Assembly: GCA_003971905.1 (NCBI GenBank)
Contig: RSEE01000010.1
Span: 372,001-436,000 of the forward strand
Direction of reading: 5' to 3'
From: Moniliella sp. 'wahieum'
Taxonomy: Eukaryota
Length of the DNA stretch: 64,000 bases
Part shown: piece by piece, positions 10,817 through 18,384 of the stretch
Numbering within the stretch: position 1 is the first letter of the stretch
Layout of the letters: the number at the start of each line of letters is the position of its first letter
The notes under the pieces: model-generated
The model's database searches: none
What the model saw: only the letters and a program-made list of their open reading frames with translations
Told to the model about the DNA's origin: nothing
Position numbers and translations under genes: made by a program

Positions 10817-11395
10817 ATGTCGCTGCCGAAGCTCTTGGCCCAAGTGTTTTTCGTTGGCTCCCAGATCGTGGGCAAGGCCTTCATGGAGGCAGGCCGCCAG
10901 GCCGTGCGCAACATTCGCGCGACTCCTGAAACAGCTGCAGCAGGTGGAGCTGCTGCTGCTTCTGGCTCCAAGGCTGGTGGAGTCAGTGGCGAATTGACCC
11001 GCTCCCATCGCATGACCCCCGATGAGGCCATGCTCATCCTCAACTTTAAGCAGGCCGAACCAGGCAAGGTCCCATCACCAGAAGAGATCGAAAAGATGGT
11101 CCAAGTACGTGCTCATTCCCCCTTTACTTTCCGAAACCAAATGGGCCTGGGACCTGGGACGTTGCCGTGCTGACAATTTCCTGCGCTCATTTTCTCTTCA
11201 GACATACGAGCGTCTCTTCAAGATCAACGCGCCTCCCGCGCCTAAAGGCCGCCAGGGCGGTGGACAAGGAAGCTTTTACGTTCAAAGCAAGATTGTGCGG
11301 GCACGAGAACGTCTCGAGGCCGAGTGGGACGCTCTGCGTAAGCAATCTAATCCTCTCCTCCTTCTGATGGCCCTCAAGCGCCACCAACCGCATGA
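10817..11395 (+). CDS. PAM16: Mitochondrial import motor subunit Pam16/Tim16; intron 11106-11200
   Basis: GSQIVGKAFMEAGRQA, MTPDEAMLILN, YERLFKIN and GSFYVQSKIVRARERLEAE; likely native end PPSDGPQAPPTA* after a 1-bp slip. Confidence 0.9.
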
Positions 11396-11726
11396 TGCCC
11401 TGGGTAGGTATGGATGCCTTCCTGTTCTAGACCGAGTTCCATCCATTGTTCTCCCAACTCTCTGGGCCGTTGCGCACGGCACCGACACCTCCATCAATCT
11501 ATTCGCCACTACTACGTTCTTGCCTGCCCCATCCTCCGCCCCCACGCCCAATGCCGTAAAGTTGTGCAATCTTCGTTTCTGTAACTTGTCAGCTTGATGC
11601 TTGAAGCTTGATTTGAGTGCCGACGTCCACGGGAGCTTCGACTTATTGGGCTCAAGTTTAGGCAAAAGTCTGGGGGGGCAACAAACATCACAAAAGAGAG
11701 TTCTTGACAGAATGCGTAGCTGGAAG

Positions 11727-11953
11727 TGTAGCGACGACAGGACGCCAGAACACAATCGAGACACAGCAGTCTCGACGATGCAGACAGCGGATACAGTAGA
11801 GAGACAGAGGAAGAGGAACGGGTATAAGCGGCAGCGAGATACAGGTGGTGGGAAGGCAAATACAGGCGTTGCTACAAGAGGAAAAGAAACCTTTCGGAGT
11901 AGGTAAGCTAGCTAACTGAAGAAGGCCTAGCCAACCACCGGACCATAGAACCA
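11727..11953 (-). repeat. 3' LTR (227 bp), preceded on the - strand by a polypurine tract
   Basis: The + strand reads TGTAGCGAC...CCA; on the - strand AAGGGGGGG-CA sits immediately before the TG start. Confidence 0.78.
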
Positions 11954-11970
11954 TGCCCCCCCTTGCTTGC

Positions 11971-12430
11971 CTAGGAAAAGGCAACGGAAGACTCGATATC
12001 GTCAGGAGGGGAAGGAAGCGGACAGAGCCACCTGTCACGGTCCGTCTCGGTGGCAACGCGGCCGGACGTGTCACCCAACCTATACGTGGCGGTGCCTATC
12101 GCCCCATCAACCCGTAAAGGCGGAGTCCAGTTGGCGAACATGGCACCAACAGGGTCCGAAGTGCGCCGAACAAGCAGCTGTTGAACCCAGGAGCATAGTC
12201 CAGCCGCCGATGCGGAGCAGGCTGTGTATTGCGGATCCCGGAGCGCGCGGCTGAGAGAGCGCTTGATCCGCTTGATGCCTGCGTCTGCGGGCCCGTTTCT
12301 TTGAGGATTGTAAGCGCCAATGTGCATCTGCTGCACATCTTGCGAGACCAGATACCGAGACGCCATGTCGCTGCGAATGCCCCTTTCTGAGTCAGTGATA
12401 AGCGTCTCAGGCGGAGAAGGAGGTTCATTC
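11971..12430 (-). pseudogene. Truncated retrotransposon integrase (C-terminal core plus GPY/F-like segment)
   Basis: PETLITD...HIGAYNPQRNGPADAGIKRIKRSL resembles P..I.SD...AYHPQ.NG.AER; WTPPLRVDGAIGTATYRL resembles W.GPF.V...G..TY.L; stop codon next to the PPT. Confidence 0.75.
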
Positions 12431-14062
12431 GAGACGGGTAACCTTTTCTGCGCAGTACGGACCGTGAAGGTCACTCGCTGCGCTCGGGTCAGGGCCGCTG
12501 CTGGGGTGCGACTGCTGGGTCTGGAGGGCTGCAAAAGGTTCGCGGCGAATGCGCTGGGCAAGTTTCTTCTTCTTGGCCTGCATTTTCGACATGCCGCCAG
12601 GAACCGCGGGCGCAGGCGTCGACGGCGTCGGGGACGGCAATACAGCTGCCGCCGGGGCTGGGCGTGCAGCCGTAGACGCTTTGGAGCGGTTGACCCATGC
12701 TTGATTCGTCCGGACAGCTGCGCGAATCCCGCTGTTTAGCTTGGTGAACCAAGTATCCCAAGAGCAATGAGCGTCCACCAACTCCTGTAGAGCAGTGCCA
12801 AGGAAACCATCGACGGACGCAATGACGTTCTTCTGTATTTCATAGGCACTGGCTGCACCCAAGAGGGCGTAGTCTGCGCGAACGCGGTCCGGGAGCTCAC
12901 GTGGTGTAAGCCTCTGGTAGTGATTGCCGCTTCGAATCTTGGCCAGGTGGGCGGCGAATGCGTTGCGGGGACGGACAGCACGGAGGAGCCCTAACTTGAA
13001 GTTAATCCAGCAGTTCGCATGCGGGGGCAGCGTGGCGAGTCTAGCGGTCGCCAAGTAGGGGCCAACGACGAACTCTTTCGCGAGGGAGCCACTGGCCCTG
13101 GAGGCAGGGTCAATGTCGTAAGCTTCCAACAGTTGTTCGAATTCGAGGATCCATGCGGGGAGGCTGAGGGGATTCTCGTCCCATTTGGGCGGCCCGCGGA
13201 AGTCATTGCGGATTCGAAGAGGGGGCTCGGTGACGCGGCCTTGATCCGCTTGGGTAATCTCCTCAGGTTCGACAATCGCTGCTAGGAGGCTAGCCGATCC
13301 GAGAACGTCAACAGGATCCGGGGTCTTCTTCGAGCGGGGAACGGGGGCGTCGCCTACGGCCGCAATCGCGTTCTCCCGTATTTCATAGGTGCCGGCTGCG
13401 CCCACGAGGGAGTAGTCCGCGAGAACGCGATCCGGGAGGTCACGCGGTGTAAGGCTCCGGTAGTGGTTGCCGCTTCGAATCGAGGCCAGATGGTCGTCGA
13501 GCGCGGTGCGAGGTTGGACAGCTTCGAGAAGCCCTAACTTGAAGTTAATCCAGCAGTTCGCATGTGGGGGTAGCGTGGCCAGCCTAGCGGTCGCCAAGTA
13601 GGGGCCAACGACGAACTCTTTCGCGAGGGAACCACTGGCCTTGGAGGCAGGGTCAATGTCGTAAACTTGCAACAGTTCTTCGAATTCGAGGATCCATGCG
13701 GGGAGGCTGAGGGGATCCTCGTCCCATTTGGGTGGTCCGCGGAAGTCTGTGCGGACTCGAATAGGGGGCTCAGTAACGCCGAATTGGTCCTCGTGGGTAA
13801 TTTCCTTAGGTTCGGCAATCGCTGCGAGGAGGTAGGCTGCTCCGGGAGCGGCAACAGGAGCCAGGCTCGTGTTTGTAAGGGGAACGGGGGCTCCGCCTGG
13901 GGCCAGGACCAGCGCCTCGAGCGGGCAGTCAGCAAGCCATTGGCGAAGCGCAGCCTTGGATTCGCCATTCTCGGCGGCGAATTGCTCACCGCCGTTGAGA
14001 CGGACGATGTCCCTGAGGTGGTTGATAGCGAGGAGGTCGAGGAGCGAGGTCGGTTGGGACAT
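12425..14062 (-). CDS. Gag-like protein (about 545 aa) with a tandemly duplicated capsid-like domain
   Basis: Uninterrupted ORF from MSQPTSLL; two units of about 160 aa at a 543-bp offset, each with FRGPPKWDE.PLSLPAWILEFE.LL and CWINFKLGLL, resembling retrotransposon capsid helices; located between the PBS and the integrase stub. Confidence 0.7.
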   Translation of the reverse strand: MSQPTSLLDLLAINHLRDIVRLNGGEQFAAENGESKAALRQWLADCPLEALVLAPGGAPVPLTNTSLAPVAAPGAAYLLAAIAEPKEITHEDQFGVTEPPIRVRTDFRGPPKWDEDPLSLPAWILEFEELLQVYDIDPASKASGSLAKEFVVGPYLATARLATLPPHANCWINFKLGLLEAVQPRTALDDHLASIRSGNHYRSLTPRDLPDRVLADYSLVGAAGTYEIRENAIAAVGDAPVPRSKKTPDPVDVLGSASLLAAIVEPEEITQADQGRVTEPPLRIRNDFRGPPKWDENPLSLPAWILEFEQLLEAYDIDPASRASGSLAKEFVVGPYLATARLATLPPHANCWINFKLGLLRAVRPRNAFAAHLAKIRSGNHYQRLTPRELPDRVRADYALLGAASAYEIQKNVIASVDGFLGTALQELVDAHCSWDTWFTKLNSGIRAAVRTNQAWVNRSKASTAARPAPAAAVLPSPTPSTPAPAVPGGMSKMQAKKKKLAQRIRREPFAALQTQQSHPSSGPDPSAASDLHGPYCAEKVTRLE

Positions 14063-14122
14063 AGCGATTTGTTTTGAGGGAGCGATGGAGTCGATGGAGC
14101 GACGCCTCGGAGCGGAGATTAG

Positions 14123-14137
14123 CGCGTATACTCGATA
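14123..14137 (-). promoter_or_regulatory. Putative self-priming primer-binding site
   Basis: 15 nt, 4 nt downstream of the 5' LTR, exactly complementary to 14233-14247 inside the LTR. Confidence 0.7.
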
Positions 14138-14141
14138 ACTC

Positions 14142-14363
14142 TGTAGCGACGCAAGTATGCCAGAACGCAATCGAGACACAGCAACAGTGTCTACGATGCA
14201 GACAGCGGATACAGCGGAAGACAGATGAGGAGTATCGAGTATACGCGGGAGCAAGATACAGGTGGTGGGAAGGTAGATACAGGTGTGTCTGCAAGATGAA
14301 AAGAAACCCTTCTGAGTAGGGAAGCTCACTGAGGAAGGCGCAACCACCCACGTGGCAATAACA
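14142..14363 (-). repeat. 5' LTR (222 bp)
   Basis: The + strand reads TGTAGCGAC...AATAACA; shares blocks such as caatcgagacacagca, acgatgcagacagcggatacag, agatacaggtggtgggaagg and gaaaagaaacc with 11727-11953. Confidence 0.8.
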
Positions 14364-14511
14364 GGAGTGCATGTCGCAGTCCTCAGTAATTTCATGTCCA
14401 CTAAAGATGAAGATTAGGTAACCCACCCCATCAATCCCTTTTTTCCAGATGGCTCAACGACTTCCGCCTCTGCTGTGGTCTCCACCACCTCCATCTCACC
14501 GCACCATTACC

Positions 14512-15396
14512 ATGCCCATTATCCAGCCTTCGGGCAGATCAAGCTCACCAACGTGTCGGTTGTCCGGCTACGAAAAGGGGGAAAGGTATGTCACCCACTC
14601 TCTATTCCTCCGCCTGCAGGGTTACTGACGGCGCTCTCTGATATGGCAGCGCTTTGAGATTGCCTGTTATAAAAACAAGGTCCGCGAGTGGCGCACGGGC
14701 GTCGAGAAGGATATTGACGAAGTGGTGCAGATCCACTCGGTCTTCTTCAATGTTAGCAAAGGTCAGACAGCTCCCAATGGCGACCTGCAAAAGGCATTTG
14801 GCACGACGGACCAAGAGGAGATTGTGCTCCAGGTACGTCCTGTTTTCAGCGTGGTTTCTGTACGGGAGTGTATTGACTGGATTTGGGTTTGCATCCTAGA
14901 TCTTGAAGAAGGGCGAACTGCAAGTGGGAGAGAAGGAACGCAGTACAGAACTTGGAAACTTGTTCCGGGAAATTGCTACGCTTGTCTCGAACCAAGGTGT
15001 GGACCGTGTATCGCAACGGCCCTTCACGGTGGGTATGATTGAAAAGTCGATGACGGAGATTGGATACAGCGTCAAACCAGGAAAGAGCGCCAAGGCCCAA
15101 GCGCTTGACGTGATGCGCCAGTTGAAAGAAAAGAAGATTCTTGACTTAGAGCGGGTCAAGCTGCGTGTACGCGTGACAGCTGCCAACAAGGACGGTAGAA
15201 GCTCAAGGAGAAGGTGCACCCGCTGGTTGAGAAGATCGAGTCGGAAGAGTGGGATGATGGATGGGAGCTGATCGCGACCATTGATCCGGGAGCACTCAAG
15301 TCGCTCAATGAGCTGCTCGAGTCGGAAACCAAGGGCCGTGCTCGGGTAGAGACGCTCAACACGATTCGCAATGAAGGCGAGGAGAGTTTTGAGTAG
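14512..15396 (+). CDS. SDO1: Ribosome maturation factor SBDS/Sdo1; introns about 14586-14649 and 14833-14899, plus frameshifts
   Basis: [50 protein letters not shown] and IDPG. Confidence 0.93.
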
Positions 15397-15510
15397 ATCC
15401 ACTTTGCCCTCTCCTTCACACTTCTCTGTCGCTCTCCCCTCGTCTTGATACCCATCCATCTCGTTCATATCTGCTCCATTGTTTGGTGTGCACATCAGCA
15501 AGGGATACAT

Positions 15511-17371
15511 TTATTGTTGTCCCGTGGGGGGCATAAATGGAGGCCACATAGCGTGGGGGTAGGGTGCCGTCATGTGCATATACGGCATGGGATTGGGGTA
15601 GGCCATGCTGGGGGCCATTGCATAGGGGGCGTATGGCATTGGCGGCTGGCTGGGTTGGGTAGTAGAGGCTGAGGGAGGGTGTGGGGTAGATGGCTGCATA
15701 ATGGACGAAGGGCCTTGTGTAGGGGCCATGCCGGACCAATTAGTTGGCGCCTTGGAGGCGGAAGGGGCGGAGGGGGCAGGTGGGGCAGGTGGGGCAAGAG
15801 GGTGCTCACCGCCTTGACTGGATACATCGGCCAATGCACGATAATAACCAAAGTAGAACGAAGCGTACGAAAGATTTTGCATGATCTCGTCGTGGGTCAG
15901 GCCCATGGCACCTACACCGGTTCCAGGCTGAGAGGGTGGGACTGGTGGAAGAGTCAATCGTCCTGGCGGGCGGTGGGACATAGGAGGCTCGGGTTTCGCT
16001 AGTAAAGGCTCGATTGGTGGAACATGTGCCTGTTTCGTTTCGCCATCCTCTCGTGTAACTCGATCAGCCACAGCAGGAGCCATGGACGAAGCTTGAAATG
16101 CGCGAGTAGGAGAAGGTGCACCTTGATTCGGCAGACTAACCAAAGAGTGCGATGCTGGCACCTCATCCTTCGGGGCCTCGCGCTGTGCCTTGGCCCTGGT
16201 CTGTACCACCTTGGCCTTAAGCTGCAATAGCTCTCGATGTTTCTTGCGTCGCTCATGAAGAATAGCATACTCTGCCTCGGCTTGTTCCCAAGTATCGACC
16301 AGCTCAGAGTCGTCCCACACCTCGTTGTGGGGCCCAGAGACAAGATCGCCCCATGTGAGCTTCATCGGATCCTCTTCTTCCATCTCATCGAGATCGCTAG
16401 CGTACTCGCCTTCGTCTTGGTCGCCTTGGTGCTCGGCCTCTGGCAAATGCTCCCTTTTGGCCACGCCAACTTCTTCTGAAGCAGTAGCCTCCCCCATATC
16501 GCTTTCGGCCATGTCCGATGGCGAACGCAAAGAAATCCGGCCATCAGTTGCGAGGGGAGGGGACTGTGACTTTGTAGCTGTACCAGAATGTTGTATTCTG
16601 GACACAAGGTGGCCCAATGGTTTGTCCTCTCCGTCCTCGTCTTGAGCAGTTACCGCCATGTCTTCCGCTCCTGATGATCCACCATGCTCAGTATGATCAT
16701 GCTCAACATCATCATGGGTCCTGCGGTGGTTCTTCACACTGCTATGCTCTTTGTACCAATCCCCATCAGCAGGGTACGTCCCGTTTCGGGCAGCAGCGAC
16801 TTGCATATTGGTCGCCAGGGCCCGCGGACCGGCACGCGTCGCATTGACGATGCGAGATGTGCCATCGGAGACACGTTTGCGCTTAAGATGAAATGGCAAG
16901 CTCTCCTCGGACGCGTTCGTCTTGGTCCAGGAAGATGTGACCGGGGTCTGGGGGGACTGTTTTAAGGTCGTCGAGTTGGGGCGCTGGCGCTTCCGCCCTG
17001 AGCCTGAGGCAGAGCCCGAGGCAGAGCCCGGGGCAGGGCCTGGGGCATGGACCCGAGCAGGGCCCAAGGAGGCCTCGCGTGGAGTGAGAGGTGCGCGCAA
17101 GGGGCTCTCTTCGAGGGACTCCTGTTTGACGTGAACCAATTTGGCTGTAACTGGGGGAGAATGAGACGGGTCGAATGCTCGGGGAGTGGCCGTCGCGTCG
17201 TTCTGGCGCTGCATCTCGTCGTCGGTCTGGAGTAGAAAGAGGTCCATCTCGTCCGCATCGTCGTCTTCAACCACACGAGGATCCGCGACTGGGGCGCCGG
17301 CATGAAATCCAGAGGGAGCAGCAAGGCAGCGTGTGGGGTGAGGACTGCTTCGGGGGCGCGGGAGACGCCAT
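15511..17371 (-). CDS. Survival motor neuron (SMN)-like protein with a long disordered N-terminus
   Basis: VWDDSELVDTWEQAEAEY (Gemin2-binding-like) and MQNLSYASFYFGYYRA (YG-box-like); the start at ATG 17371 needs a 1-bp correction. Confidence 0.7.
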
Positions 17372-17598
17372 GATGGTAGCAGCTGGCTGCAGCAGAAACC
17401 GATGCGATTTCGATGGCCAAAAAGTGTACCCGACGTGCCGCAGCACAATGCGACGCGTTGTGGCTTATGTAACCCCCGGACTCGCGTTGCGGAGGCGCCG
17501 GCGCTTCCAATTAAACCCGAGGACCAAGCAGGCAAAGCGGCTCGGCCGGCCTGGGGCGAGTTGTTGGTCTGTACCCAACCACTGCGGCCTCCGCTCCG

Positions 17599-18384
17599 AT
17601 GGCCACCGGCTTCAATGCCGCCGAGTTCCACGAGCGTGTGTACGACGTGGTGCGCATGATCCCTCGCGGCCGCGTGACCACCTATGGCCATGTGGCCAAG
17701 CTCGCAGGGTACCCCGGCTATGCACGCGCCGTCGGCACCGCTCTCAAGGGACTCCCTTCCGATCCCAACGTATATGCCACCAACCTGGACGAGGACGCCG
17801 GCGTCGTCGATGATCAATTTCCGGATGTGGATGGAGCCGATGCGCCTCTTCCTTGGCAGCGGGTCCTCAGCGCAGGTGGTTGGATTGCAGAACGTGGGTT
17901 GGCCGATGGCGGTGTGGGAGCCAATCATCAAGCGGACGTTCTGCGAGCCGAAGGTATTCAAATTGTCGAGCCGCGCGGCGGAGGGATCAGCACACAACGC
18001 GGAGCACGACTGCGTGTGTCGCTTCATGGTGAGGAAGGTTATGGATGGTGTAAGTTGTTTCCCTCACATTGTCTAGCTCGGCCTGAACGGCGTTCTTGTT
18101 TGTCTGCAGTTCCATCCGCGGTGCGCACGTCCGTTTCCCCACAGTTGGAAAGCCCGCCGGCTCATTCACCAAGGCACTCGCCTGTTATTTCATCACAAAA
18201 CCCGACAAGCCCCAGCGCCTTCCACCCCATTGATGAACAACCTGCTAGCACATCCGAGCAAGACCATCCGTCCCGTCCCAATATCTCTAGACGAAGAAGG
18301 CCGTCTGGATCGGGATCGGAGGAACCCAGCCCACCTGTTCGGCGCAGCAAACGCCTTAAAGCCCGTCTTCCTTCTTCTGGCTAA
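17599..18384 (+). CDS. atl1: Alkyltransferase-like (ATL/MGMT family) DNA-damage-binding protein; probable intron about 18049-18108
   Basis: VYDVVRMIPRGRVTTYGHVAKLAG, ARAVG, PWQRV (Trp in place of the MGMT Cys) and Q..LRAEGI. Confidence 0.85.
   Translation: MATGFNAAEFHERVYDVVRMIPRGRVTTYGHVAKLAGYPGYARAVGTALKGLPSDPNVYATNLDEDAGVVDDQFPDVDGADAPLPWQRVLSAGGWIAERGLADGGVGANHQADVLRAEGIQIVEPRGGGISTQRGARLRVSLHGEEGYGWCKLFPSHCLARPERRSCLSAVPSAVRTSVSPQLESPPAHSPRHSPVISSQNPTSPSAFHPIDEQPASTSEQDHPSRPNISRRRRPSGSGSEEPSPPVRRSKRLKARLPSSG

Follow-up and report, generated by a model that had tools for sequence, protein, structure and literature searches.

An intact, internally duplicated gag-like open reading frame in a decayed LTR retrotransposon of Moniliella

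The element and its flanking genes

The stretch of DNA analysed here (the window) comprises 64 kb of contig RSEE01000010.1 from Moniliella sp. 'wahieum', and within it an LTR element of 2.6 kb (2637 bp, 11727-14363) lies on the minus strand in the spacer between PAM16 and SDO1, an insertion site that is a few hundred bp long (Table 1). The coding end of PAM16 falls somewhere between 11346 and 11597, and on the other side the start codon of SDO1 lies 148 bp from the outer edge of the 5' LTR, with the two in divergent orientation. It represents what is left of an old LTR retrotransposon after internal deletion. A single long ORF, gag-like by its position, begins 80 nt past the 5' LTR, and only some 450 nt separate its stop codon from the 3' LTR; Pfam detected no PR, RT or RNase H domain in the element, as had already been noted in a first-pass annotation of this DNA. 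At the putative deletion junction, the gag-like frame contains a lone Cys and then, 8 codons further on, its stop, and the integrase-like stretch opens there in a different frame.

Table 1. Features of the element and of the flanking host genes, in order of position within the window
Feature	Position	Strand	Remarks and basis
PAM16, flanking host gene	10817-11597	+	Pfam Pam16, E = 1.7e-06, 28.5 bits (below the curated cut-off of 30.3)
3' LTR	11727-11953	-	227 nt, TG...CA ends; self-BLAST, LTR alignment
Polypurine tract AAGGGGGGG	11956-11964	-	2 nt from 3' LTR; sequence
Degenerate integrase-like remnant, end of pol (putative)	11974-12408	-	open in its own frame; translation, motifs, position
Internal deletion junction (putative, approximate)	12410-12450	-	deduced from reading frames
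Intact ORF, gag-like by position	12425-14062	-	545 codons + stop; translation
Tandem unit B	12813-13361	-	aa 235-417; self-BLAST, repeat search
Invariant 38-aa core, unit B	12983-13096	-	aa 323-360
Tandem unit A	13356-13904	-	aa 54-236; self-BLAST, repeat search
Invariant 38-aa core, unit A	13526-13639	-	aa 142-179
Leader, 5' LTR to ORF start	14063-14141	-	sequence
5' LTR	14142-14363	-	222 nt, TG...CA ends; alignment of both LTRs, sequence
SDO1/SBDS, flanking host gene with introns	14512-15400	+	start codon 14512; SBDS_N, E = 3.7e-22

Ahead of the purine tract lie motifs that we take to be integrase-like; the remnant bearing them ends in a stop codon (11971-11973) immediately before the tract, and the pol-like frame is open over 254 codons. 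Pfam returned no rve domain in this remnant at E ≤ 10, a PDB search gave 10 chance matches, all of them to the vitamin D receptor (E ~0.2), and comparison with longer proteins in the protein database retained none of 2201 candidates. The first-pass annotation had spoken of a dead gypsy element: the LTR element is upheld, whilst the gypsy order was left unconfirmed by Pfam, PDB and the protein database. On the strength of the integrase-like motifs and their position, the element probably belongs to the Ty3/gypsy order.

After the 5' LTR no tRNA-type primer-binding site (TGG-type) was recognised, and the 64-kb window has no tRNA gene for comparison. The 301 nt of LTR and leader are free of ATG triplets, with 3.1 expected from shuffled sequences (P = 0.034). 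Read on the plus strand, the flanking pentamers are GGAAG (11722-11726) and GGAGT (14364-14368), which reproduces the earlier observation that there is no clean TSD; a match at three of five positions would fit decay at about 10% per site, or else two different insertions. Self-BLAST found neither a second copy nor a solo LTR elsewhere in the 64-kb window, and the element may be single copy.

An ORF containing two in-frame units

The ORF translates into 545 aa without interruption, in keeping with the earlier description, and reaches 656 aa when extended to the first upstream ATG (14395). It consists of an N-terminal part of 53 aa, two units of 181 aa each and a C-terminal part of 128 aa, the latter exhibiting a proline-rich stretch and a lysine/arginine patch. 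Self-BLAST aligns the units (549 nt each) in frame and without a gap at an offset of 543 nt, with 84.88% identity, and a separate repeat search returned the same spacing: the exact in-frame offset of 543 bp that had been read from the letters is hence borne out. The 6 nt by which units A and B overlap reflect an imperfect microhomology at their junction. At the protein level 47 of the 183 residues differ (74% identical), and over the narrower range of aa 76-236 the count is 34 of 161, close to the initial hand count of about 33 differences in 159 residues. Equally, the claim of a 38-residue stretch that is identical in both units despite synonymous changes in its DNA proved correct, with 6 of 114 bases differing and all six differences synonymous. 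Every coordinate and count of the first-pass annotation could be reproduced.

An 85%-identical in-frame repeat of 549 nt within a 545-codon ORF cannot be a product of chance in DNA of 61% G+C, as estimated from base composition. Since the units differ by 15%, the duplication is also not a simple assembly collapse or expansion. Two further candidate repeats were rejected: a third, older partial copy at the N-terminus in the 181-aa register (55 of 159 nt identical, rank 12 of 438 offsets; shuffle P = 0.57 by local alignment) and a repeat inside a single unit (P = 0.54). In the literature, judged by titles and the openings of abstracts, we found no internal or tandem duplication within the gag of an LTR retrotransposon.

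Relative age of insertion and duplication

Both LTRs of an element are identical at the time of any new insertion. Those of the Moniliella element now differ by 38 substitutions in 219 aligned bases (82.6% identical) and by 4 indel events that together span 11 nt. Their JC divergence is 0.197 ± 0.033; the LTRs are thus clearly diverged and the element old, as the first-pass annotation had maintained. Between units A and B, 17 of 82 fourfold sites differ (JC 0.243 ± 0.062). Because the fourfold divergence of the units (0.24) matches that of the LTRs (0.20), duplication and insertion are of roughly the same age, and the units acquired most of their divergence after integration. RIP-like mutation of the repeat is not supported by the spectrum of changes, with transitions and transversions numbering 45 and 39 between units A and B, and 17 and 21 between the LTRs.

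The main rival explanation bears directly on this clock. It holds that the element belongs to a gag-only, non-autonomous LTR family of the TR-GAG kind, a multicopy family moved in trans by a full-length partner: the constraint on the ORF would then derive from the transposing lineage or from gene conversion, and the unequal LTRs from recombination between two family members instead of from age. The layout of the element is the one published for such elements (PMC4350172), which have LTRs, a purine tract and a single gag-like ORF within less than 4 kb, and pentamers matching at three of five positions are what a recombinant would show. If the element did arise by recombination between two others, as the mismatch between the pentamers would also allow, LTR divergence could not serve as a clock. 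Recombination of this kind would nevertheless have deleted the DNA between the two elements, yet the PAM16-SDO1 spacer is only a few hundred bp long; the agreement between the fourfold divergence of the units and the LTR divergence would have to be a coincidence, and the family would be represented in the 64-kb window by neither a second copy nor a solo LTR. Overall, we regard membership in such a family as rather unlikely.

Constraint between the units and survival of the reading frame

Comparison of units A and B by four methods gave dN/dS values of 0.48-0.60, which describe the constraint between two units of one copy and not between orthologs. Values of about 0.5 would indicate only mild constraint; they would also be expected in a member of a gag-only family, from selection at the level of the lineage plus later drift. 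In the first 22 residues of the unit dN/dS exceeds 1. Simulation of the null case gave 54.7 ± 3.7 replaced residues, against the 47 of 183 observed (P = 0.027). The 38-codon block departs further from expectation: six random changes within it would all be synonymous with P = 0.0005, and a run of at least 38 codons without replacement has P = 0.0001. Where replacements did occur they are conservative, with a mean BLOSUM62 score of -0.13 against -0.67 ± 0.21 under the null (P = 0.006). The frame of the ORF has no stops, whilst the only frame with fewer replacements (45, on the opposite strand) has 6 and 7. Gene conversion is an unlikely source of the invariant block, as synonymous change within it is not lowered (6 differences in 38 codons), which argues against such an origin.

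The survival of the frame points in the same direction. Of 5000 ORFs simulated with 10% change per site, only 1.0% escaped a new stop. At the indel rate of the LTRs, the two units should have gathered 10 indels and the whole ORF 15, with none observed; a neutral ORF would be expected to escape indels far more rarely still than stops. The indel expectation derives from 4 LTR events only, and LTRs may be more indel-prone than coding-like DNA. With duplication and insertion of similar age, a frame free of constraint should have been broken in that time. The GC3 of the ORF is 0.665, and that of eight host ORFs lies between 0.59 and 0.68.

These results also have to be set against the view that the ORF is a neutral relic, open by luck in G+C-rich DNA, its constraint being noise and the LTRs overstating its age. 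Long frames are indeed common (83 stop-to-stop ORFs of at least 170 aa in the window, besides the long pol-like frame), the test over the whole unit reaches merely P = 0.027, dN/dS is not far below 1 and the indel rate comes from 4 events only. Such a relic would, however, have had to avoid new stops as 1.0% of the simulated ORFs did, to remain without any of the 10-15 expected indels, to acquire its synonymous-only block and the long run by chance and to undergo conservative replacements; the tests of constraint are partly independent and all agree in direction. We consider a neutral relic improbable.

The pattern of mutation suggests that the fungus has kept a duplicated gag-like gene. An intact and constrained ORF amid a decaying element, a feature of exapted Gag restriction factors of the DRT2/Fv1 type, is what the comparison of the two units of this one copy reveals. 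The first-pass annotation had proposed a capsid gene that was duplicated and then kept under purifying selection: here the duplication is upheld, as is the constraint between the units (dN/dS and simulations), whilst the capsid identity is not.

Searches for a Gag or capsid identity

Pfam was searched with the whole ORF at E ≤ 1 and with each unit and the N-terminal and C-terminal parts at E ≤ 10, and no family was returned, PF03732 and PF19259 included. A PDB sequence search with the ORF gave no match, and a profile of the unit gave 4 chance matches to a plant C2-domain protein (E = 1.2-1.8). AlphaFold2 was run on the whole ORF and, with the other unit supplied as sole extra row, on aa 270-470; the models reached mean pLDDT values of 38.9 and 38.6, with secondary structure that is all helical and no reliable fold. 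The initial assignment of the repeated unit as a capsid domain thus found no support in Pfam or PDB, and the AlphaFold models (pLDDT ~39) offer no usable fold on which to base it.

Searches for relatives were similarly empty. An exhaustive phmmer search with the ORF found none among 1,835,955,588 representatives at E ≤ 0.001; in the protein database, none of 8000 scored candidates of near length was homologous to the whole ORF, and a profile of the unit retained none of 8000 candidates among longer proteins at E ≤ 10. Pattern searches gave 152 matches in metagenome contigs and 5 in viral contigs, with none confirmed in either. An exact look-up in the protein collection found none of 8 ORF products of the window, although the ORF models may differ from the called genes. 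As the proteins of this genome thus seem to be missing from the collection, the absence of orthologs is weak evidence. The same holds for the argument that a long-lived family with a doubled unit should have left relatives: none was found, which speaks against the TR-GAG-type explanation, weakly so given a collection with 0 of 8.

Gag-like proteins do emerge from the ESM Atlas. For aa 235-545 the nearest named cluster, at 0.92, is annotated as Retrotrans_gag (100% of members) and zf-CCHC (34%), and the ten best named matches all belong to the same family or clan; for the whole protein, Fv1 (0.86), Arc and Retrotrans_gag entries appear, all below 0.9. These scores serve as leads, since a score of 0.9 is attained by 4-10 of 100 shuffled proteins. 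From the position of the ORF in the element and from these language-model look-alikes we infer a Gag or capsid identity, which is not proven.

This matters for a further possibility, namely that the host has kept the ORF for another role, either in forming particles as Arc and PEG10 do or as a duplicated helical module that is not a capsid. It shares all of the selection evidence with the explanation favoured below, and it would accommodate both the lack of capsid homology in the Pfam and PDB searches and the fact that no active relative to be restricted was found, neither in the 64-kb window nor among the representatives searched with phmmer. Fungal Gag co-options to which no function has been assigned do exist, in the form of Crtg12-14 (PMC8321522). 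The language-model look-alikes are nonetheless Gag families, the sole functionally characterised exapted fungal Gag that we found in the literature, DRT2, is a restriction factor, and no particular alternative role is indicated by the data. We consider a different host role distinctly unlikely.

A proposed history of the element

The explanation that we favour is the following. In the distant past, the short PAM16-SDO1 spacer would have received an LTR retrotransposon, probably a member of the Ty3/gypsy order. During reverse transcription of this copy, or soon after, nearly all of pol may have been deleted, and in the same period a 543-bp piece of gag would have been doubled in frame at the short imperfect microhomology. 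Afterwards the LTRs would have drifted, with the gag-like ORF staying open and the cores of both units remaining under purifying selection. Retention by the host as an exapted Gag-derived gene appears to be the likeliest reason for the open ORF. Whether the ORF is kept by selection at the level of the host at all we judge to be a nearly even question.

By analogy to DRT2, p22 and Fv1, the protein could be expressed from the 5' LTR, co-assemble with Gag from active elements related to it and spoil their particle lattice, with the two linked units providing two binding surfaces per chain. Taken as a whole, an exapted Gag-derived gene including interference with related elements is a tentative proposal that we hold to be on the doubtful side. 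Still less likely is the more specific version in which a gypsy-type Gag, kept by a basidiomycete-type fungus since the ancient insertion, carries a doubled capsid-like region as a covalent capsid dimer, be it a dedicated poison of particles or a builder of particles used by the host.

Significance and comparison with known systems

Host-kept Gag genes are well known in animals. For fungi, few Gag co-options have been described: DRT2 (PMC13709905) and three deep cases, none of which stems from Ty3/gypsy (PMC8321522). If the Moniliella ORF is host-kept, it would add a co-option of a gypsy-type Gag in another fungal group; if the full reading is true, it would be, among the cases found in the literature, the first gag that fungi have co-opted from Ty3/gypsy as well as the first Gag with a doubled capsid. 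A host-kept ORF would moreover constitute a natural experiment in which a capsid-like region has been doubled in one chain with both halves constrained. The arrangement raises a question that can be tested: does the linking of two assembly domains yield a poison of retroelement particles that is more potent, or broader in its action? Membership in a multicopy gag-only family would instead mean that the TR-GAG concept of plants can be carried over to fungi, a result useful for annotation and otherwise ordinary.

The TR-GAG elements of plants are defined as families that have two or more copies in a genome and are flanked by 5-bp repeats (PMC4350172). Like them, the Moniliella element is short (2637 bp, below 4 kb), has LTRs and a purine tract, and contains one long ORF where gag is expected (of putative Gag identity). 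In contrast to TR-GAG, it retains a piece of pol, contains a tandem duplication inside gag and has flanks that agree at three of five positions. By a word search, the TR-GAG paper makes no mention of fungi (0 occurrences; PMC4350172).

Fv1 of mice and Crtg12-14 resemble the proposed gene in that they are gag-only, stem from retroelements and have been kept by the host. None of the three fungal genes is of Ty3/Gypsy origin: Crtg12 and Crtg13 come from Ty1/Copia, Crtg14 from Bel-Pao. They are single-copy genes common to whole families of species, and their LTRs have been lost (PMC8321522), unlike the Moniliella element, in which the LTRs are still recognisable. We found no sequence similarity between the ORF and Fv1 or Crtg12-14.

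That covalently doubled capsid proteins can build shells has a precedent in the dsRNA viruses of fungi (PMC6164181). The Penicillium chrysogenum virus (Chrysoviridae) capsid protein contains one helical domain twice, with a linker between the copies, and is a covalent dimer produced by gene duplication (PMC6164181), and the likeness to the Moniliella ORF lies in the presence of two copies of one domain in a single chain. The comparison extends no further than this architecture: the former belongs to a dsRNA virus, with an unrelated fold and halves that have lost their sequence similarity, whereas the halves of the Moniliella ORF are 74% identical, and for this ORF no particle is known.

A close parallel is DRT2 of S. 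cerevisiae, a gag ORF under purifying selection in a decayed Ty1' insertion, the product of which poisons the particle lattice (PMC13709905). DRT2 is of Ty1/copia origin, comprises only the C-terminal part of the capsid (169 aa), is 91.5% identical to the Gag of the living element and is fixed across lineages, transcribed and active (PMC13709905). The Moniliella ORF differs from it in being full length, in its doubled unit, in the apparently gypsy-like order of its element and in having no known living relative. What it has in common with DRT2, together with p22/p18 of Ty1, is a decayed fungal insertion with an intact gag ORF and a proposed co-assembly of its product with related Gag.

Anatomy and genomic setting of the element

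The LTR element is inserted between PAM16 (Pfam Pam16 match, E = 1.7e-06, under the curated cut-off) and SDO1 (SBDS_N, E = 3.7e-22) in gene-dense fungal DNA: the window holds 83 stop-to-stop ORFs of at least 170 aa, and the 56 of these that were scanned against Pfam returned housekeeping domains only and no retroelement domain. Since no second transposable element domain is found among these 56 ORFs, the relic stands alone within a block of housekeeping genes. ARAGORN detected no tRNA gene in the whole window. Alignment of the two LTRs over 219 positions shows 38 substitutions, plus 4 indel events, and the flanking pentamers agree at 3 of 5 positions, in line with the first-pass annotation, which had described diverged LTRs and no clean TSD. 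The 301 nt of the 5' LTR and leader (minus strand) contain no ATG, compared to 3.1 expected from shuffles (P = 0.034), while one ATG is present in the 3' LTR. GC3 of the gag-like ORF is 0.665, with eight host ORFs ranging from 0.59 to 0.68.

Features of the element and its surroundings (window positions)
Feature	Position	Strand	Description
LTR element	11727-14363	-	2637 bp
5' LTR	14363-14142	-	starts TG, ends CA
Leader	14063-14141	-	79 nt between 5' LTR and ORF
Gag-like ORF	14062-12425	-	single ORF, 545 aa
Unit A	13356-13904		repeat copy; aa 54-236
Linker of unit A	13838-13903		aa 54-75
Unit B	12813-13361		repeat copy; aa 235-417
Linker of unit B	13295-13360		aa 235-256
Pol-like frame	11974-12735	-	open for 254 codons; overlaps last 310 nt of gag-like ORF
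Pol-like stretch	stop at 11971-11973	-	~450 nt open in other frame
Purine tract AAGGGGGGG	11964-11956	-	2 nt from 3' LTR
3' LTR	11953-11727	-	starts TG, ends CA
SDO1 start codon	14512
838-aa ORF	15511-18027	-	Pro/Ser/Ala-rich
Methyltransferase-domain ORF	17515-18381

The stretch before the purine tract resembles, in our reading, the last part of an integrase core with the integrase C-terminal module behind it, which would imply the gypsy/Bel domain order. The gypsy affiliation proposed in the first-pass annotation draws support from this appearance but not from Pfam, PDB and protein database searches, none of which confirmed the integrase-like stretch, and is hence unproven. That part of the pol-like frame overlapping the gag-like ORF is arginine-rich, displays no recognisable motif and is probably just a consequence of high G+C.

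On the other side, the 5' LTR reaches to within 148 bp upstream of the start codon of SDO1, an essential ribosome-biogenesis gene in yeast, and runs in the opposite orientation (14363-14512). The SDO1 promoter region now adjoins or takes in LTR sequence, and a bidirectional promoter may serve both. Beyond SDO1 lies an 838-aa ORF with a Gly-Ser-Ala repeat and no Pfam domain, the first ~430 nt of which are antisense to an ORF encoding a 6-O-methylguanine-DNA methyltransferase DNA-binding domain (Pfam, E = 1.9e-18): one of these two start assignments is probably wrong.

Tandem duplication within the gag-like ORF

Self-BLAST revealed an in-frame, gapless tandem repeat of 549 nt within the ORF (offset 543 nt, 84.88% identity), and the 543-nt spacing also emerged from repeat finding. 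Because the copies are 15% apart, the duplication is not a trivial assembly artefact. The duplication junction shares an imperfect microhomology of ~12 nt with both outer edges of the repeat, which fits template switching or slippage. Units A and B, the two copies, differ at 47 of 183 residues overall and at 34 of 161 over aa 76-236, close to the hand count made previously (about 33 of 159). A block of 38 residues (aa 142-179 in unit A) is identical in both units whilst 6 of its 114 bases differ, all synonymously; the duplicated unit, its offset and this identical stretch had all been described beforehand and were reproduced here, as was every other feature seen in the first-pass annotation.

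Identity of the ORF

The interpretation of the unit as a capsid has proven harder to substantiate. Pfam contains no family matching the ORF at E ≤ 1, nor either unit or either ORF end at E ≤ 10, and phmmer found no match to the ORF among all PDB chains at E ≤ 10; a two-unit profile gave only 4 PDB matches, all at chance level (E = 1.2-1.8) and all involving a plant C2-domain protein. An exhaustive search of 1,835,955,588 representative proteins yielded 0 homologs at E ≤ 0.001, word-indexed protein searches with the ORF, the unit profile and the integrase-like remnant found no homolog, and scans of metagenome and viral contigs returned no relative. AlphaFold2 predicted helices throughout each unit but no usable fold (mean pLDDT of 38.9 and 38.6 in two runs). 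In favour of Gag, the ORF is the first downstream of the 5' LTR and, towards its end, is rich in proline over one stretch and has a Lys/Arg patch. In the ESM Atlas, the nearest cluster to aa 235-545 (score 0.92) carries Retrotrans_gag in 100% and zf-CCHC in 34% of members, the ten best named matches all belonging to the same family or clan, and the whole protein retrieves rows for Fv1, Arc, Retrotrans_gag and zf-CCHC, none of which reaches 0.9; such scores serve as leads only, given that shuffled proteins attain 0.9 in 4-10 of 100 cases. Thus, homology leaves the gag or capsid identity unproven, whilst position and protein-language features favour Gag, and our best guess is a fast-evolving Gag. 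As Pfam does not recognise the ORF, we do not file it under Retrotrans_gag.

Age and selective constraint

The LTR pair shows a Jukes-Cantor (JC) distance of 0.197 ± 0.033, which together with the indels supports the earlier view of an old relic, and 17 of 82 fourfold-degenerate sites differ between the units (JC 0.243 ± 0.062): duplication and integration are equally old within error, and therefore most change between the units must have happened at this locus, which is central to how the selection tests are interpreted. Four methods returned an inter-unit dN/dS of 0.57, 0.52, 0.48 and 0.60 for the whole unit, and of 0.43-0.47 over aa 76-236. Random placement of 84 substitutions at the observed proportion of transitions yields 54.7 ± 3.7 replacements, against 47 in the actual comparison (P = 0.027), and those 47 are milder than random (mean BLOSUM62 of -0.13 vs -0.67 ± 0.21, P = 0.006). 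The purifying constraint suggested in the first-pass annotation is supported, albeit unevenly along the unit. For the identical block, chosen post hoc, random scattering of the 47 replaced codons would give so long a replacement-free run with P = 0.0001, and six random changes would be solely synonymous with P = 0.0005; synonymous change there (6 in 38 codons) equals the level found elsewhere, which favours protein-level selection over gene conversion. The first 22 residues of the unit, a Pro/Ala-rich linker, have a dN/dS above 2, with differences at 13 of these residues and at 18 of the 66 bases. This linker changes much faster than the remainder of the unit, as would a new inter-unit connection that is free or adapting.

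The reading frame is also stop-free in both units; the sole frame with fewer replacements (45) lies on the opposite strand and has 6 and 7 stops. Of 5000 simulated ORFs, 1.0% gained no stop at 10% change per site (half the LTR distance) and 3.1% at 8%. Applied to the ORF, the LTR indel rate predicts 15 events, 10 of them in the two units, and none is seen. That rate may be too high, resting on 4 events and on LTR sequence; even if it were fivefold lower, the joint chance of ORF survival would be small. The selection signal is real, and a neutral relic, against which several partly independent tests speak, is quite improbable.

The constraint could alternatively stem from an active lineage, or be renewed by conversion, if the element belonged to a gag-only, non-autonomous family resembling TR-GAG and its LTRs were unequal as a recombinant of two copies. 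The imperfect flanking repeats are compatible with this, but the matching distances at LTRs and fourfold sites argue against it, as does the narrow PAM16-SDO1 spacer, and we regard it as rather unlikely. A copy at a fixed site cannot be kept intact by selection among transposing lineages, which places the constraint at host level provided that the LTR clock holds. That the host has kept the ORF as a Gag-derived gene has, in our estimation, a little under an even chance, and domestication is unproven. Among host roles, interference is favoured because it has a direct fungal precedent in DRT2: the host-kept protein would disturb the assembly of related elements, with the two-unit chain offering two surfaces, an arrangement that could help, hinder or be irrelevant. 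This full account, interference included, we hold at well below even odds, and a different host role appears less probable still; the remainder falls to explanations we have not thought of.

Comparison with known systems

As described in PMC13709905, DRT2 of S. cerevisiae is a Gag ORF that purifying selection has preserved within a decayed Ty1' insertion, and binds the Gag of the living element via a common capsid surface, poisoning the lattice. Any likeness in action between our ORF and DRT2 or Fv1 would be by analogy. The element agrees with the structural part of the TR-GAG definition (PMC4350172), the other part of which concerns copy number. Among titles and opening lines of abstracts, subscription journals aside, we found no gag-internal duplication in an LTR retrotransposon, and the doubled unit is unusual. 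Doubled or serial capsids do occur in two further reports: yeasts are reported to carry totivirus-like capsid ORFs in a tandem array that has been domesticated (PMC13756089), and chrysoviruses of fungi have a covalently doubled helical capsid protein (PMC6164181), which is unrelated to the unit described here but shows that a doubled design can assemble. The fungal gag co-options Crtg12-14 are single copy and of Copia and Bel-Pao origin (PMC8321522).
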